Source: Escherichia coli (GTDB lineage: Bacteria > Pseudomonadota > Gammaproteobacteria > Enterobacterales > Enterobacteriaceae). Taken from it: DNA of 64,000 nt. A program made the translations under genes and the position numbers. The notes beneath the pieces were generated by a model. That model was not told where the DNA came from, made no database searches, and worked only from the letters and a program-made list of their open reading frames with translations. The stretch lies in the NCBI RefSeq assembly GCF_003790525.1, contig NZ_CP033635.1. One strand, given 5' to 3'. Of the stretch, positions 13,902 to 61,481 are shown in pieces. Numbering within the stretch: position 1 is the first letter of the stretch; every line of letters begins with the position of its first letter.

Positions 13902-14083
13902 ATCTCCTCCAGGTAAGTCGGGTACGACCTGGCTTACCTCTTTCGCTCTCGTCAGAATTCCATCAAGATTAATTGCTAAAAAGCGTGCTAAAGAAAGAAG
14001 ATCGTTATCGGCGAACGGGCCGATCACTCATGCAGGAAGCATAGATCCTTTGAGCGGAGTTTCTGATATCTGAGGAGTGCGAA

Positions 14084-14845
14084 ATGCAATTGAGCAGCAG
14101 TGAACCTTGCGTGGTGATCCTGACCGAAAAAGAGGTAGAGGTAAGCGTCAATAACCATGCTACGTTTACCCTTCCGAAAAACTACCTGGCCGCCTTCGCG
14201 TGCAACAATAACGTCATTGAACTCTCAACGTTAAATCACGTATTAATCACCCACATCAACCGTAACATCATCAACGATTATCTGTTGTTTTTAAATAAGA
14301 ACTTAACCTGTATAAAGCCCTGGTCGCGGCTGGCAACTCCGGTTATCGCTTGTCATAGCCGTACACCGGAAGTGTTCCGGCTAGCCGCCAACCACAGCAA
14401 GCAGCAACCCAGCAAACCCTGCGAAGCGGAGTTGACGCGCGCATTGCTTTTTACCGTATTGTCTAACTTTCTTGAGCAATCGCGGTTTATTGCCCTACTG
14501 ATGTATATCTTACGCAGCAGCGTCCGCGACAGCGTCTGCCGCATTATTCAAAGCGATATTCAGCATTACTGGAATCTGCGAATTGTCGCCAGTTCGCTAT
14601 GTTTAAGCCCCAGCCTGCTCAAAAAGAAATTAAAAAACGAAAATACCAGCTATAGCCAGATTGTCACAGAGTGTCGTATGCGTTACGCCGTACAGATGTT
14701 ATTGATGGATAACAAAAATATCACTCAGGTAGCGCAATTATGTGGCTATAGCAGCACGTCGTACTTTATCTCTGTTTTTAAGGCGTTTTACGGCCTGACA
14801 CCGTTGAATTATCTCGCCAAACAGCGACAAAAAGTGATGTGGTGA
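14084..14845 (+). CDS. envY: EnvY, AraC-family transcriptional regulator
   Basis: 253-aa ORF with a C-terminal AraC-type HTH (ITQVAQLCGYSSTSYFISVFKAFYGLTP). Confidence 0.85.
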   Translation: MQLSSSEPCVVILTEKEVEVSVNNHATFTLPKNYLAAFACNNNVIELSTLNHVLITHINRNIINDYLLFLNKNLTCIKPWSRLATPVIACHSRTPEVFRLAANHSKQQPSKPCEAELTRALLFTVLSNFLEQSRFIALLMYILRSSVRDSVCRIIQSDIQHYWNLRIVASSLCLSPSLLKKKLKNENTSYSQIVTECRMRYAVQMLLMDNKNITQVAQLCGYSSTSYFISVFKAFYGLTPLNYLAKQRQKVMW

Positions 14846-14890
14846 AGGGCAAAGCGGAAACGGATAAGACGGGGATAAATGAAGAAGAAA

Positions 14891-14967
14891 TGGCGCGCCC
14901 TGCAGGATTCGAACCTGCGGCCCACGACTTAGAAGGTCGTTGCTCTATCCAACTGAGCTAAGGGCGC
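14891..14967 (-). tRNA. argU: tRNA-Arg, anticodon UCU (argU)
   Basis: Reverse complement reads GCGCCCTTAGCTCAGTTGGATAGAGCAACGACCTTCTAAGTCGTGGGCCGCAGGTTCGAATCCTGCAGGGCGCGCCA: cloverleaf with anticodon loop CUUCUAA and 3' CCA. Confidence 0.93.
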
Positions 14968-15208
14968 GTTGATACCGCAATGCGGTGTAATCGCGTGAAT
15001 TATACGGTCAACCCTTGCTGAGTCAATGGCTTTTGATCTGGTTGCTGAACAAGTGAACGACCGCGTCTGATTTTCTGATTTATTTCGTTATAGCGGCAAA
15101 CAAACGCACACCGCTGCGCGTCTGAATCAAGAAAACCCGTATTTTCATGTATCAAGTACAATTTCCCGCCCTAACGGAAAATTGTCCGATCCAATGAGAC
15201 TGGTAACT

Positions 15209-15841
15209 ATGAAACCAACGTCGGTGATCATTATGGATACTCATCCTATCATCAGAATGTCTATTGAAGTTCTGTTGCAAAAAAACAATGAATTGCAAAT
15301 TGTCCTGAAAACGGATGATTATCGCATAACCATCGATTATCTCCGAACCCGTCCTGTTGATTTAATCATTATGGATATAGACTTGCCCGGAACAGACGGT
15401 TTTACCTTCCTGAAAAGGATCAAACAAATCCAGAGTACAGTGAAAGTATTATTTTTATCATCGAAATCAGAATGCTTTTATGCTGGCAGAGCGATACAAG
15501 CTGGTGCTAACGGTTTTGTCAGTAAATGCAATGATCAGAATGATATTTTTCATGCCGTTCAGATGATCCTCTCCGGATACACTTTTTTTCCCAGCGAAAC
15601 GCTCAACTATATAAAAAGCAATAAATGTAGTACGAATAGTTCAACGGTCACTGTGCTATCTAATCGTGAAGTAACCATATTACGTTATCTGGTTAGCGGA
15701 TTATCTAATAAAGAAATTGCCGATAAGTTATTACTTAGCAATAAAACAGTTAGTGCACATAAATCTAATATTTATGGCAAGCTAGGTTTGCATTCAATTG
15801 TAGAGCTTATCGACTACGCCAAATTATATGAATTAATATAA
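15209..15841 (+). CDS. fimZ: FimZ, LuxR/NarL-type response regulator of fimbrial genes
   Basis: ORF containing MKPTSVIIMDTHPIIRMSIEVLL; receiver domain plus C-terminal LuxR HTH (LSNREVTILRYLVSGLSNKEIADKL); diverges from the sfm operon. Confidence 0.88.
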   Translation: MKPTSVIIMDTHPIIRMSIEVLLQKNNELQIVLKTDDYRITIDYLRTRPVDLIIMDIDLPGTDGFTFLKRIKQIQSTVKVLFLSSKSECFYAGRAIQAGANGFVSKCNDQNDIFHAVQMILSGYTFFPSETLNYIKSNKCSTNSSTVTVLSNREVTILRYLVSGLSNKEIADKLLLSNKTVSAHKSNIYGKLGLHSIVELIDYAKLYELI

Positions 15842-15843
15842 TA

Positions 15844-16359
15844 TTAATTATAATTGATCATAAATATCGCATCCGCTTTCGCCACACCAGGCTGAACACC
15901 GCTGGCTAACGCTCGATAATTGGCAAAAAAGTTTAGTGTGACATTGCCATTTGCATCAACTTCCTCAGTCGAGCTCGCCTCCCCCAGTGCGAGCCGGGAG
16001 CGATCGCTATTACGTAATTCGATGGCGACGGTTTGTGCCATTGCGGGATCATCCAGAGCCAGCAGGTTGGCATCAGATGCCGGCGTTCCCGTAAATAAAA
16101 TCGCAACTGAACCCGGAGGACATCCCTCCAGCCGCAGGCTAAAAGGGACGAGTGCCGTGGTATCGCCAGCGCTCAGTAATTGTGTCGTAGGCCATCTGCC
16201 TAAATCTACCGTCTTATCCTTATCCGCTGTGTTTACGGTACAGGAGAAATCAACAACGTTACCGTGCAAATTGATATTAATCGTTCCTAAAGGGTCAACT
16301 GCCCATCCACTGGAACTCCACAGTAGCCCGCAGAAACAGCTAAAGAGTACTCTTCTCAT
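15844..16359 (-). CDS. sfmF: SfmF, minor fimbrial subunit
   Basis: 171-aa product from the MRRVLFSCFCGLLWSSSGWA start; fimbrial-subunit C-terminal motif; last gene of the operon. Confidence 0.85.
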   Translation of the reverse strand: MRRVLFSCFCGLLWSSSGWAVDPLGTININLHGNVVDFSCTVNTADKDKTVDLGRWPTTQLLSAGDTTALVPFSLRLEGCPPGSVAILFTGTPASDANLLALDDPAMAQTVAIELRNSDRSRLALGEASSTEEVDANGNVTLNFFANYRALASGVQPGVAKADAIFMINYN

Positions 16360-38019: not shown

Positions 38020-38523
38020 TTACTGATAGTGTTTTATGTTCAGATAATGCCCGATGACCTTGTCATGCAGCTCCACCGATTTTGAGAACGACAGTGACTT
38101 CCGTCCCAGCCTTGCCAGATGTTGTCTCAGATTCAGGTTATGCCGCTCAATTCGCTGAGTGTAACGCTTGCTGATTACGTGCAGCTTTCCCTTCAGGCGG
38201 GATTCATACAGCGGCCAGCCATCCGTCATCCATACCACGACCTCAAAGGCCGACAGCAGGCTTAGAAGACGCTCCAGTGTGGCCAGAGTGCGTTCACCGA
38301 ATACGTGCGCAACAACCGTCTTCCGGAGCCTGTCATACGCGTAAAACAGCCAGCGCTGGCGCGATTTAGCCCCGACGTATCCCCACTGTTCGTCCATTTC
38401 CGCGCAGACGATGACGTCACTGCCCGGCTGTATGCGCGAGGTTACCGACTGCGGCCTGAGTTTTTTAAATGGCGGAAAATCGTGTTGAGGCCAACGCCCA
38501 TAATGCGGGCGGTTGCCCGGCAT
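38020..38523 (-). CDS. insB: InsB, IS1 transposase catalytic ORF (expressed by -1 frameshift as InsAB')
   Basis: 167-aa [54 protein letters not shown]. Confidence 0.95.
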
Positions 38524-38717
38524 CCAACGCCATTCATGGCCATATCAATGATTTTCTGGTGCGTACCGGGTTGAGAAGCGGTGTAAGTGAACTGCAGTTG
38601 CCATGTTTTACGGCAGTGAGAGCAGAGATAGCGCTGATGTCCGGCGGTGCTTTTGCCGTTACGCACCACCCCGTCAGTAGCTGAACAGGAGGGACAGCTG
38701 ATAGAAACAGAAGCCAC
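38442..38717 (-). CDS. insA: InsA, IS1 repressor/transposase N-terminal protein
   Basis: 91-aa [43 protein letters not shown] (zinc-finger plus HTH). Confidence 0.95.
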
Positions 38718-49171: not shown

Positions 49172-50281
<1,110 letters not shown>

Positions 50282-50309
50282 TAGGCGGTATTCTGTGCAC
50301 GCTGTTCAT

Positions 50310-50396
50310 GCCGGATGCGGCGTGAACGCCTTATCCGGCCTACGGTTAAGTGCAGTTTTGTAGGCCTGATAAGACGCGCCAGCGTCGCATCAGGCA
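50310..50396. repeat. REP/BIME element (inverted REP pair)
   Basis: GCCGGATGCGGCGTGAACGCCTTATCCGGCCTAC plus inverted GTAGGCCTGATAAGACGCGCCAGCGTCGCATCAGGC between convergent selU and ybbP. Confidence 0.85.
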
Positions 50397-50411
50397 ATCT
50401 AACGCCTGTCA

Positions 50412-52826
50412 TCATCCCGCAAACTGCCTGAACAGCGCCTTACCCTTAACCAGTCGCGCACCCAGCCAGCCGCCGCAAAGCGACAGCAGCAGCGCACCGC
50501 TGCACGGCAGCACAATCCACAATCGCCAGTCTGGCTCCCACGGGAAATCAAACACTTTCGCCTGCAACACTGCCAGCGCCGTTTCCGCACCAATTGCGGC
50601 CACCAGGCCAGAAACAAACCCAAGCATGGCGAACTCACACCACAATGTCGTGCGCAGCAGCTTTTTCCCCGCACCGAGTGTGCGCCACACCACCAGCTCC
50701 TGATGACGCTGACGCATTCCCACCTGCACCTGTGCCAGCAACAGCAACATACCGCAGGCGGTGACCAGCACCACCATCACCTCCAGCGCCCGACTTACCT
50801 GCTCCAGCACCTGACCGACCTGTTTTAAAATCGCGCCAATGTCTAACAGGCTAATGGTCGGGAACTGGCGGTTGAGTTGCGTCAACATGCCGTTGCCATT
50901 CTCCCAGCGGAAACTGGTAAGCCAGCTCTGCGGTTGCCCGTCTAATGCCCCTTCAGGGAAAATAAAATAGAAATTAGGCCGCAGACTTTCCCAGTCCACT
51001 TTGCGCAGGCTGGTCACTTTAGCGCGGAACTCCTGGGTATCGCCCATAAAAGTCACGGTATCACCGAGGGCAACGTTTAAGCGTTTCGCCAGCCCCTCTT
51101 CCATCGACACTTCATCGGCTTTTGGCGGCCAGTTACCGGCGACAATCGGATTATGATCGGGCCGCGTATTTTGCCAGGTAAGATTGAGTTCGCGATTGAG
51201 CGCCTCATCTTCATTGCCTTCTGTCGGCTTGCCGTTAATCGCCGTCAGTCTCGCCCGCACCACCGGATAAAACGATTCCGGGACTATCTGATGTTCCGCG
51301 AGGAACGCTTTTAGCGGTGCTACCTGTTCTGTGGCGATGTTAATTAAAAAGTAGTTCGGGCTTTCTGGAGGTAGCTGCTGCTGCCAGCGGTCGAGCAGAT
51401 CGCCACGCAACACCAGCAGCAGTGCCAGCAGCATAAAGGAGAGCGAAAATGCCGAAAGCTGGCTTAACGTTGACCACGGCTGACGTAACAGGCGGCTAAC
51501 CGCCAGGCGCAGAGGCAGCGATTTCAGCGTCATGCGGCGAAGTACATTCAGCAGCATCCAGCCCAGCACACCGCACAGCAAAGCCAGTACTACCGCGCCC
51601 GCCAGCACCGCCCAAAGCAGCATGCTGCCACCCATTAATCCGGCGAGCAGCAGCACAACCACTACACTGACAATCGGCAGATAAAACTTCAGCGGCCAGA
51701 CGTTCGCTACCACATCATTACGTAATACGCGTAAAGGCTGCGTTGCCAGCAACAAGCGGTATGGTCGTAGCCCCACCAGCAGCGAGATAACCGTCATGGT
51801 GCCGAGCGCCCACAGCCACGGCCAGAGGCTGGCTGGCGGTAGTGCGGCAGGCAGAACGGGCTTGAGCAGCACCATCAACACGTTTTCGAACAACAGGCCT
51901 ATCGCCCCACCGGTAACGGCTGAAAGCGTCAGCACCATCAACCACTGACCGACGATTAGCTTACGCAGTTGCGCTCGCCCTGCCCCCAGCGTTTTGAGGA
52001 TCGCCACCAGATCGTAGCGACTGCGACAGTAATGATTCATCGCCACCGCCACCGCTGCCACTGCCAGCAGCAAGGTCAGAAGCGCAGAAAGCAGCAGGAA
52101 CTGTTGCGAGCGTTCCATCGAGCGCCCCAGCGCGCCTTCGTCCTGTTCCAGACCGTACCAGCGTTGTTCGGGTTTAAGCTGGGGTAACAACCATTTCTCA
52201 TAGCCGTCGAGCTGGTTCTCGTTGCCGCCGAATTTATAGCGCCAGGTGACCCGACTTCCCGGCTGCACGGCTCCGGTTTTATCGACATCCGCCAGATTCA
52301 TCATCAGACGCGGAGCCATCTGGAAGGGGTTAAAACCGGAATCCGGTTCCTGAATCACTTCTCCGGCAATCCGCAAGGTGGCATCGCCCACGTCAATGGT
52401 GTCGCCCGTTTTCAGGTTAAGCAGTGCCATCAGGCGTGGGGCCAGCAATACGCTGCCCGCCTGCGGTTTCAGGCCTGGGGGATTGGTTTGCAGATCGCCA
52501 TACATCGGGTAGATATCATCCACCGCTTTGACGTTCGCCAGCTGCGGTGTGTCGCCTGCAAATGTCATGGTGGCGAAAGTCAGCTGCTTGCCGACTTTCA
52601 GGCCGCGCTTTTGCGCTTCCTCCAGCCACGCTTGCGGCACTTCGCGCGAACTGCGCAACGCCCGATCGCCCGCCATAAACTCCCGGCTTTGCTGGCTTAA
52701 GCCCTTCTCCATGCGATCGCTGATATTGCCCAGCGCCAGCACGCAGGCCACCGCCAGGCTTAGCGCCAGCCAGACAATTAATAGCGACGGCGAGCGCCAT
52801 TCGCGCCAGAACCAACGTGCAATCAT
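50412..52826 (-). CDS. ybbP: YbbP, ABC transporter permease (FtsX/MacB-like with large periplasmic domains)
   Basis: 804-aa polytopic ORF MIARWFWREWRSPSLLIVWLALSLAVA. Confidence 0.88.
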   Translation of the reverse strand: MIARWFWREWRSPSLLIVWLALSLAVACVLALGNISDRMEKGLSQQSREFMAGDRALRSSREVPQAWLEEAQKRGLKVGKQLTFATMTFAGDTPQLANVKAVDDIYPMYGDLQTNPPGLKPQAGSVLLAPRLMALLNLKTGDTIDVGDATLRIAGEVIQEPDSGFNPFQMAPRLMMNLADVDKTGAVQPGSRVTWRYKFGGNENQLDGYEKWLLPQLKPEQRWYGLEQDEGALGRSMERSQQFLLLSALLTLLLAVAAVAVAMNHYCRSRYDLVAILKTLGAGRAQLRKLIVGQWLMVLTLSAVTGGAIGLLFENVLMVLLKPVLPAALPPASLWPWLWALGTMTVISLLVGLRPYRLLLATQPLRVLRNDVVANVWPLKFYLPIVSVVVVLLLAGLMGGSMLLWAVLAGAVVLALLCGVLGWMLLNVLRRMTLKSLPLRLAVSRLLRQPWSTLSQLSAFSLSFMLLALLLVLRGDLLDRWQQQLPPESPNYFLINIATEQVAPLKAFLAEHQIVPESFYPVVRARLTAINGKPTEGNEDEALNRELNLTWQNTRPDHNPIVAGNWPPKADEVSMEEGLAKRLNVALGDTVTFMGDTQEFRAKVTSLRKVDWESLRPNFYFIFPEGALDGQPQSWLTSFRWENGNGMLTQLNRQFPTISLLDIGAILKQVGQVLEQVSRALEVMVVLVTACGMLLLLAQVQVGMRQRHQELVVWRTLGAGKKLLRTTLWCEFAMLGFVSGLVAAIGAETALAVLQAKVFDFPWEPDWRLWIVLPCSGALLLSLCGGWLGARLVKGKALFRQFAG

Positions 52827-59060: not shown

Positions 59061-59423
59061 TTACTCTTCCCGGCCTTTACCCATACTTTTTTGGTCTTCA
59101 TCCGGATAGTGTTTTTTTAGATATTCCAGGACGTTTTTATTGACCTTGTGTTGGGTATACACCCACCCTTTCCAGTAATCAGGTTGGTCCAGGTAAACTT
59201 CTGGCGGAATGGTGAAATCAGAAAGCGTTAACCATTCGGCTAACAGATCGGGGTTTCGTTTCTGGATCAACTGCAACAGCATGATCAGCGACATGGCAGA
59301 GGCAGGAGCCGTACTATCGCCGCTTAAATACTTCCACACTGTCGACCGGTTCGAACGAAAAAGGATCGGTAGCAATGCCCGGTCCAGATTCATTTCATTA
59401 AAAATCTTCTCAAATTCATTCAT
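59061..59423 (-). CDS. Hypothetical 120-aa cytoplasmic protein, possible small DNA-binding regulator
   Basis: ORF with AGGAAA Shine-Dalgarno 6 nt upstream of the ATG; no signal peptide; segment RSNRSTVWKYLSG resembles the recognition helix of small phage-type HTH proteins; transcribed divergently from the adjacent 338-aa gene. I do not recognise the protein. Confidence 0.5.
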   Translation of the reverse strand: MNEFEKIFNEMNLDRALLPILFRSNRSTVWKYLSGDSTAPASAMSLIMLLQLIQKRNPDLLAEWLTLSDFTIPPEVYLDQPDYWKGWVYTQHKVNKNVLEYLKKHYPDEDQKSMGKGREE

Positions 59424-59788
59424 TTAAATTTCCTGCCTGGCGTAAACCTCTTAAAAATTGAGATTTATCAAAGAAACGCATTTTAGCACACATCAGGAAC
59501 CGCTTCACGTTTAGTCCAGAAACAGAATTTATTTCGCTTATCAAAACAAGTCTTTACTCTTTTTTACATTGAAAGAGCACGAAATAATTTCCTTTTTTAT
59601 TTATATAAGAAACTATTTTTGTTCCTTATTGGTGGTGTTTACGCTTACACAAGACAAAAATGCGCTTTACATCACACAAATGGCGGCGTAGATTTCGATC
59701 AAATTGCAACGCAGTTTATTTCTTAAAACAATATTATTTGTTTCTTATAGAAACATTAATGCGACTTATTTTGAACAAGAGAAAATGA

Positions 59789-60805
59789 ATGAAAACTGTA
59801 AACGTAGCTTTACTGGCACTCATAATTTCAGCAATATCCAGCCCTGTTGTTTTAGCTGGTGATACCATTGAAGCGGCGGCAACAGAGCTTTCAGCCATTA
59901 ACTCTGGCATGTCGCAATCGGAGATTGAGCAGAAGATTACCCGCTTTTTAGAACGCACAGACAACAGCCCCGCTGCGTATACCTATTTGACTGAACATCA
60001 CTACATCCCTTCTGAAACACCTGATACCACTCAGACTCCCACTGTCCAGACAGATCCTGACGCAGGACAAAAAACCGTTGCCGCTACAGGTGATGTACAG
60101 ACAACCGCCCGTTATCAGAGCATGATCAACGCCCGACAGTCTGCGGTAACTGATGCCCAGCAAACGCAAATTACAGAGCAACAGGCGCAGATCGTAGCCA
60201 CACAAAAAACGCTCGCCGCGACTGGAGATACGCAAAATACCGCGCATTATCAGGAGATGATTAATGCCAGACTGGCGGCTCAAAATGAGGCTAATCAGCG
60301 CACTACCACGGAACAAGGGCAGAAAATGAATGCACTGACAACCGATGTGGCAGCACAACAGCAAAAAGAAAGGGCTCAATACGATAAACAAATGCAAAGT
60401 CTGGCGCAGAAGTCTGTCCAGGCACATGAGCAAATTGAAAGTCTGAGACAAGATTCCGCACAAACGCAGCAACAGTTAACCAACACGCAAAAACGGGTCG
60501 CAGATAACAGCCAACAAATTAACACGCTCAATAACCATTTCGATTCTCTGAAAAACGAAGTTGAGGACAATCGTAAAGAAGCCAATGCGGGAACTGCATC
60601 TGCCATTGCTATCGCCTCACAACCACAGGTGAAAACCGGTGACGTGATGATGGTGTCAGCGGGAGCGGGAACGTTCAACGGTGAATCTGCGGTGTCTGTA
60701 GGAACATCTTTTAATGCCGGAACGCATACGGTACTTAAAGCAGGTATTTCTGCGGATACACAATCTGATTTCGGTGCGGGTGTCGGCGTGGGATATTCGT
60801 TCTAA
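59789..60805 (+). CDS. Small trimeric-autotransporter-like protein: signal peptide, Gln-rich coiled-coil stalk with two internal repeats, YadA-like C-terminal membrane anchor
   Basis: 338-aa ORF: N-terminal MKTVNVALLALIISAISSPVVLA-GD signal peptide; repeats QKTVAATGDVQTTARYQSMINAR and QKTLAATGDTQNTAHYQEMINAR; heptad-like stalk; C-terminus ANAGTASAIAIASQPQ...GAGVGVGYSF matches the four-strand YadA anchor pattern ending in an aromatic residue. Confidence 0.75.
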   Translation: MKTVNVALLALIISAISSPVVLAGDTIEAAATELSAINSGMSQSEIEQKITRFLERTDNSPAAYTYLTEHHYIPSETPDTTQTPTVQTDPDAGQKTVAATGDVQTTARYQSMINARQSAVTDAQQTQITEQQAQIVATQKTLAATGDTQNTAHYQEMINARLAAQNEANQRTTTEQGQKMNALTTDVAAQQQKERAQYDKQMQSLAQKSVQAHEQIESLRQDSAQTQQQLTNTQKRVADNSQQINTLNNHFDSLKNEVEDNRKEANAGTASAIAIASQPQVKTGDVMMVSAGAGTFNGESAVSVGTSFNAGTHTVLKAGISADTQSDFGAGVGVGYSF

Positions 60806-60858
60806 TTTTAACAGCAATTTCTTATTCGCAATTTTCCGCACATTATTTAAGGTTAACA

Positions 60859-61281
60859 ATGATGAATAGCTCCATTAAATCGTTTTCCCTGCTGGCGGTT
60901 ATATTACTGGCTGGCTGTAGTTCACCCACTTCCCGCATCGCAGATTGCCAGGCGCAGGGCGTCAGCCATGACACCTGTTATCTCGCAGAACAGCAGCGTC
61001 AGACGGCTATTTTAAGTGCATCCGAGGCGCAGGCATTTAAAAATGCAGAAGCCGCACAACATGCCCAGGCGGCAAAGAAAGCCATTTATAAAGGATTTGG
61101 CATGACCTTTAGAATGAGCAGTAAGAACTTTGCTTATCTCAATGATTCATTATGTGCAATTGATGAAGACAATAAAGATGCCACTGTTTATCAGTCAGGT
61201 CTTTATAACGTCATTGTTTATCACCACACGGGAAAAGTCGCCTTAATGAAGGAAGGTCAGTTTGTGGGTTATTTAAAATGA
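60859..61281 (+). CDS. Hypothetical lipoprotein (140 aa)
   Basis: Signal peptide with lipobox LLAG-C (Cys20), three further Cys; AAGG ribosome-binding site upstream; 53 bp downstream of the autotransporter-like gene. Confidence 0.6.
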   Translation: MMNSSIKSFSLLAVILLAGCSSPTSRIADCQAQGVSHDTCYLAEQQRQTAILSASEAQAFKNAEAAQHAQAAKKAIYKGFGMTFRMSSKNFAYLNDSLCAIDEDNKDATVYQSGLYNVIVYHHTGKVALMKEGQFVGYLK

Positions 61282-61481
61282 AGGAGCAAAGGAAAATCCC
61301 CCTGACGCATATTATGATTATCGGTGCGTTTATTTTTGCCTTCTTGCAAGTGGTGTTATTAGCCTCCCTGGTTCACGCTGTGAATGTTAACAACGAAATC
61401 CAGGAAGGCTTATTTCAGTCGGGGCGCATTATGGTAGAAAGTTTGCAGCATATTCTTTCGGTGCAAACGGGGATTAACTGA
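61278..61481 (+). CDS. Hypothetical small single-pass membrane protein (67 aa)
   Basis: ATG overlaps the lipoprotein stop (ATGA), with AAGGAG inside the upstream gene; one hydrophobic helix IMIIGAFIFAFLQVVLLASLV. Confidence 0.45.
   Translation: MKEQRKIPLTHIMIIGAFIFAFLQVVLLASLVHAVNVNNEIQEGLFQSGRIMVESLQHILSVQTGIN

Follow-up and report, generated by a model that had tools for sequence, protein, structure and literature searches.

The argU locus and its neighbors

The DNA analyzed here, a 64-kb stretch of Escherichia coli contig NZ_CP033635.1 that we refer to as the window, contains a single tRNA gene according to ARAGORN, a tRNA-Arg with the anticodon TCT, which lies between the genes for the regulators EnvY and FimZ (Table 1). 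The tRNA gene matches Rfam RF00005 with a score of 72.1 bits, is intact, and has the same sequence as argU of E. coli K-12 when the two are aligned. EnvY shares 99.2% identity with its K-12 counterpart over 253 amino acids and FimZ shares 99.5%; envY is convergent with argU and fimZ is divergent from it, and in K-12 these genes are the chromosomal flanks of the prophage DLP12, envY beyond attR and fimZ on the attL side. The first-pass annotation, a reading of the sequence alone, had placed envY 45 bp from the tRNA gene, and the ARAGORN and ORF coordinates agree with this. Apart from 2 SNPs, the intervening 45 bp match the K-12 sequence that borders the DLP12 attR externally, and a terminator scan of this spacer 3' of argU found no convincing intrinsic terminator. 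Upstream of argU, a consensus scan identified TTGACT and TATAAT separated by 16 nt (11 of 12 consensus positions matched), a putative sigma-70 promoter from which argU may be transcribed. Beyond envY lie ybcH, nfrA, nfrB, and the cus genes, and beyond fimZ lies the sfm fimbrial operon, so that the gene order in the window is the one found around DLP12 in K-12, with the orientation reversed.

Table 1. Features of the envY–argU–fimZ interval (positions in the window)
Feature	Position	Strand	Basis
envY, AraC-family regulator	14084-14845	+	ORF; K-12 EnvY match; Pfam HTH_AraC, HTH_18; RefSeq SMS-3-5
Spacer, 45 bp, from the envY stop codon to the argU 3' end	14846-14890		alignment
att core (attB), 47 bp, single copy	14889-14935	minus	blastn and alignments
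argU, tRNA-Arg(UCU), anticodon TCT	14891-14967	minus	ARAGORN; Rfam; alignment with K-12
Sigma-70 promoter-like site upstream of argU	14999-15026	minus	consensus scan
fimZ, LuxR-type response regulator	15209-15841	+	K-12 FimZ match; Pfam Response_reg, GerE; RefSeq start 15209

The att core and occupied argU sites

In phages that enter argU by means of a tyrosine integrase, attP would contain a duplicate of the 3' portion of that gene. For DLP12 of E. coli K-12, the attB is reportedly located in argU, a description said to go back to Lindsey et al. in J Bacteriol in 1989. According to the K-12 annotation DLP12 extends from 564755 to 586056, between argU and envY, with intD beside argU and appY–ompT at the far end, and this is the arrangement from which the first-pass annotation had argued. 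We aligned the reverse complement of window positions 14780-15030 with the two K-12 junctions, argU–intD (attL) and ompT–envY (attR). On the fimZ side and across the entire tRNA, the window is the same as attL; starting at the anticodon loop and continuing into envY, it is the same as attR except for the two SNPs in the spacer. The block common to the window, attL, and attR is CTTCTAAGTCGTGGGCCGCAGGTTCGAATCCTGCAGGGCGCGCCATT, a sequence of 47 bp that starts in the anticodon loop and ends 2 nt after the encoded CCA of argU, and the alignment with the K-12 junctions that the first-pass annotation had suggested thus defines the attB core. A second alignment placed the core boundary at the same position in the attR of ST648 and on the argU side of strain E2348/69.

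Searches with the prophage itself gave a consistent picture. When all of DLP12 was compared with the window by blastn, the sole match was the 47-bp core, where DLP12 positions 1-47 (K-12 564755-564801) align with window positions 14935-14889 at 100% identity, and the core occurs nowhere else in the 64 kb. The window was also searched by tblastn with K-12 IntD, OmpT, AppY, EmrE, YbcK, RusA, QuuD, RrrD, NohD, and BorD; the only match to any of these ten proteins was that of AppY to EnvY, with 44% identity over 96 amino acids, which is the expected paralogy within the AraC family. Neither the tblastn and blastn searches of the window with DLP12 genes nor the annotation of that region in the matching RefSeq record revealed an adjacent integrase or other phage gene. 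Directly 3' of argU there is no integrase gene or pseudogene, as envY begins the flank after 45 bp, and the window lacks a partial argU copy (attR) with appY and/or ompT beside envY or ybcH. The earlier claims that integrase and phage genes are absent from the locus, and that it is negative for ompT and appY, are therefore upheld by these searches.

The single core is joined on one side to the attL-side and on the other to the attR-side bacterial flank, with no scar in the alignment. The site is therefore a base-perfect unoccupied attB, with one core and colinear flanks and without an integrase, an insertion sequence, or a scar; the observations are deterministic facts of the sequence, so chance is not an issue. 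We conclude with high confidence that the interval is an intact argU gene, the 3' part of which is an unoccupied attB for lambdoid prophages of the DLP12 type that integrate at argU. The first-pass annotation had offered two readings, an empty attachment site or a clean deletion, and the junction of attL left flank, one core, and attR right flank accords with its description; the two readings cannot be told apart from the sequence because precise Int/Xis excision restores attB exactly. The site is a textbook example of an empty attB in a tRNA gene, here in a genome that has been published. The attB is predicted to be usable as an integration target, and phages specific for argU, or tools built on integrases, could use it as a landing site.

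Three occupied sites illustrate what the window lacks. K-12 shares with the window the tRNA gene, the 47-bp core, and chromosomal flanks consisting of fimZ and, opposite it, envY–ybcH–nfrA, but 21.3 kb of prophage lie between two cores, with intD at one end and appY–ompT at the other, whereas the window has one core and no insert. The genome of strain ST648 (CP008697.1), a close relative of SMS-3-5, resembles the window in the bacterial sequence, with 99.6% identity over a 5-kb segment of the cus region, an identical EnvY protein, and the same attR core boundary, but it differs in carrying a lambdoid prophage at argU followed by appY–ompT–attR–envY. The ST648 prophage has genes for terminase, portal, capsid, tail, J, lom, and tail fibres, and is apparently a complete lambdoid prophage. 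In the EPEC strain E2348/69 (B2), argU is likewise intact and nfrA–ybcH are nearby, but a remnant of about 3-3.5 kb is present at argU and envY, fimZ, and the sfm operon have been lost. The gene order in E2348/69 is ybcH, ompT, a SAM methyltransferase gene, a tail-fibre-assembly pseudogene, an integrase pseudogene, argU, and folD.

We propose that these arrangements share one mechanism. Specifically, in lysogens a tyrosine integrase would recombine attP with the 47-bp core of argU, and after integration attL would hold the complete tRNA, with int beside it, and attR the partial tRNA copy. The cargo genes appY and ompT would then lie at the att-proximal end of the prophage, beyond the tail-fibre genes, and K-12 would represent a decayed form of this layout and ST648 a seemingly complete one. 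In the window, the fimZ–argU and envY–ybcH–nfrA flanks are joined directly, and the locus would simply express argU.

An illegitimate or IS-mediated deletion of a prophage at argU could in principle also have emptied the site. The ompT gene of E. coli B strains was lost by a deletion of this kind. Such events do occur at the locus, as is seen in B2 strains of the E2348/69 type, where an ompT remnant has outlasted envY and the sfm operon. In the window, however, the flanks, the tRNA gene, and the 45-bp spacer are base-perfect, there is one core, and no insertion sequence or scar is present. An illegitimate deletion would almost never restore a base-perfect junction, and we rejected this explanation as highly improbable.

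Distribution of the empty site and of omptins

The frequency of the empty site was determined with a junction query of 281 bp, consisting of the 3' end of envY, the spacer, argU, and 100 bp upstream of it, against the complete E. coli genomes. The envY–argU junction is contiguous in 2537 of the 5426 genomes (47%), including O157:H7 strains. About 1120 genomes, in the manner of the B2 strain E2348/69 that was sampled, match on the argU side only, with 90-95% identity, and the remaining ~1770 match in the manner of K-12, with the attL and attR pieces split. A K-12-type ompT is present in 3095 of the 5426 complete genomes (57%) and missing from 43%. Given these proportions, neither an empty argU site nor a chromosome lacking ompT is out of the ordinary in E. 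coli. The results confirm argU as a hot, bistable integration site that is empty in about half of the genomes, and they confirm that the protease OmpT and the regulator AppY are encoded by prophage cargo rather than by core genes. In a survey of UPEC genomes, ompT was found downstream of nfrA–ybcH, with envY and appY variably present (PMC6854850).

The location of ompT in the O157:H7 strain TR01 also bears on its mobility. There it is situated away from argU, at the tail-fibre end of a different prophage in the vicinity of minCDE, where IS elements and fragments of tail-fibre-assembly genes adjoin it, and this position confirms ompT as mobile phage cargo. The TR01 gene (extracted segment 9001-9954) is 100% identical to the K-12 allele. 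A scan of genome contigs for an envY–argU pattern gave one match; the tRNA part of the pattern lies inside the 47-bp core, so that attR fits it as well. Contig JAIJJM010000316.1, a 3.5-kb sequence binned in a 'Collinsella sp.' MAG, carries the 3' end of an E. coli envY, an attR core, and the start of ompT, and is almost certainly mis-binned Escherichia DNA.

The window is closely matched by the chromosome of strain SMS-3-5 (NC_010498.1), which we take to belong to phylogroup F. By megablast, window positions 1-25000 and 39001-64000 are each 100% identical to that chromosome, the identity thus covering these two stretches, and the coordinates correspond to positions 603600 to 539601 of the minus strand of NC_010498.1. 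Other closed genomes that are equally or almost equally identical form a small clade of isolates from chicken, human, dog, and river sources, so that the lineage is certain. About 20 independent closed assemblies are 100% identical over window positions 14000-15900, and all have the contiguous junction. Strain XDL (NZ_CP043033.1), a member of this clade, has an IS2 added within an otherwise 100% identical envY–argU–fimZ stretch.

These comparisons bear on whether the assembly of the window could have dropped a prophage from argU or collapsed it. Nothing in favor of such an artefact was found, and we rejected it. The window is the same as the closed SMS-3-5 chromosome over the stretches compared, the same junction recurs in the ~20 independently assembled complete genomes of the clade and in all 2537 genomes with the contiguous form, and no misplaced piece of ompT or appY was seen elsewhere on the SMS-3-5 chromosome; the chance of an assembly artefact is in our estimate vanishingly small.

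The wider search for ompT and appY was carried out at megablast sensitivity with a chimeric query, in which a 5-kb cus segment of the window, included as a handle for ranking, was combined with K-12 ompT and appY. The ST648-like genomes served as internal positive controls. SMS-3-5 ranked second among all records and matched in a single place, as did every clade member with 100% identity over the cus segment. Among the 35 listed relatives with 99.6-99.7% identity over that segment, the query matched in three places in 24, in one place in 10, and in two places in 1. The search beyond the locus that the first-pass annotation had recommended therefore found neither ompT nor appY on the SMS-3-5 chromosome, within the detection range of megablast. 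This absence would extend to the strain from which the window derives if that strain is SMS-3-5 or a member of its clade. In the literature naming both SMS-3-5 and ompT, we found no statement of the ompT status of this strain.

SMS-3-5 is nevertheless not free of omptins, despite the lack of an ompT match on its chromosome, because its 130-kb IncF plasmid pSMS35_130 encodes a 317-residue omptin-family protease at positions 74276-75229. The plasmid protein has 73% identity to K-12 OmpT, and its gene adjoins mig-14-like and SDR-oxidoreductase genes (extracted segment 21763-25229). An arlABC island that includes the omptin ArlC (pOmpT) has been described on IncF plasmids of the ColV/ColBM type (PMC6854850, PMC11410778), and pSMS35_130 shares the arlABC arrangement of mig-14-like, SDR, and omptin genes. 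From this gene context the pSMS35_130 enzyme is assigned as ArlC-like. It differs from chromosomal OmpT in being plasmid-borne, with the identity to OmpT given above, and it is unconnected to argU. For this strain we would thus predict no chromosomal OmpT activity and a plasmid-borne omptin instead, a status that bears on resistance to antimicrobial peptides and on the use of such strains as hosts for protein expression.

History of the site and other features of the window

We now consider how the site came to be empty in the SMS-3-5 clade. We lean slightly towards a history in which argU was occupied earlier and the occupant was lost in an ancestor of the clade, either because Int/Xis excised it precisely or because homologous recombination in the flanks brought in an empty allele. 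Occupied states surround the clade, which gives a weak parsimony argument for loss. Specifically, both ompT and appY are present in 24 of the 35 listed relatives with 99.6-99.7% identity over the cus segment and neither is present in 10 of them, and a remnant with ompT persists at argU in E2348/69, the B2 strain that was sampled, a type of match seen in the approximately 1120 genomes noted above. Close relatives are polymorphic for ompT and appY, which shows that turnover at the argU site is fast.

The same evidence weighs against the possibility that the attB was never occupied, with the ancestors of the SMS-3-5 lineage remaining unlysogenised at argU while their relatives gained prophages independently. 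The closest sampled relatives are mostly occupied and parsimony, as weak evidence, leans to an occupied ancestor, as does the remnant in the sampled B2 strain. On the other hand, the empty junction is the commonest single state and occurs in widely differing strains, O157:H7 among them, and ompT, as mobile phage cargo, is found at other loci as well. The occupants of argU also vary by lineage, from the decayed DLP12 of K-12 to the apparently complete lambdoid prophage of ST648 and the remnant in B2, and the argU prophages of K-12, ST648, and B2 may be independent integrations, which would speak against loss. So would the transport of ompT by phage to the site near minCDE in TR01, together with the empty argU junction in other O157:H7 genomes. 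A site that was never occupied is thus quite plausible, even if we consider it somewhat less than an even prospect.

Loss of a prior occupant could also have had a functional cause. It is conceivable that the SMS-3-5 clade was cured of a prophage with ompT and appY after the arlC-like omptin of a ColV/ColBM-type plasmid had made OmpT redundant. Were this the case, prophage loss would be functionally tied to plasmid gain and would not reflect neutral turnover, but we regard such a sequence of events as very unlikely.

Several further differences from other E. coli genomes were seen in the window. The ybbP gene adjoins mnmH (selU) at about 50281-50412, and the 7-kb RhsD element that lies between these genes in K-12 (rhsD, ybbC, ylbH, ybbD, ylbI, and ylbG) is absent. 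A VgrG/RHS island located between cusS and nfrB in ST648 is missing from the window. An islet of ~2.5 kb with four ORFs, at window positions 59061-61481, separates cueR from ybbJ, two genes with no other gene between them in K-12, and has a GC content of 0.37-0.44 compared with about 0.53 in the flanks. One of the four ORFs encodes a 338-residue protein with a YadA_anchor domain, as in trimeric autotransporter adhesins, and the three small ORFs have no match in Pfam. In the allantoin gene cluster, an IS1 at window positions 38020-38717 interrupts ybbY, which encodes a uracil/xanthine transporter; the two halves are annotated as pseudogene fragments in RefSeq, and K-12 and E2348/69 have an intact ybbY.
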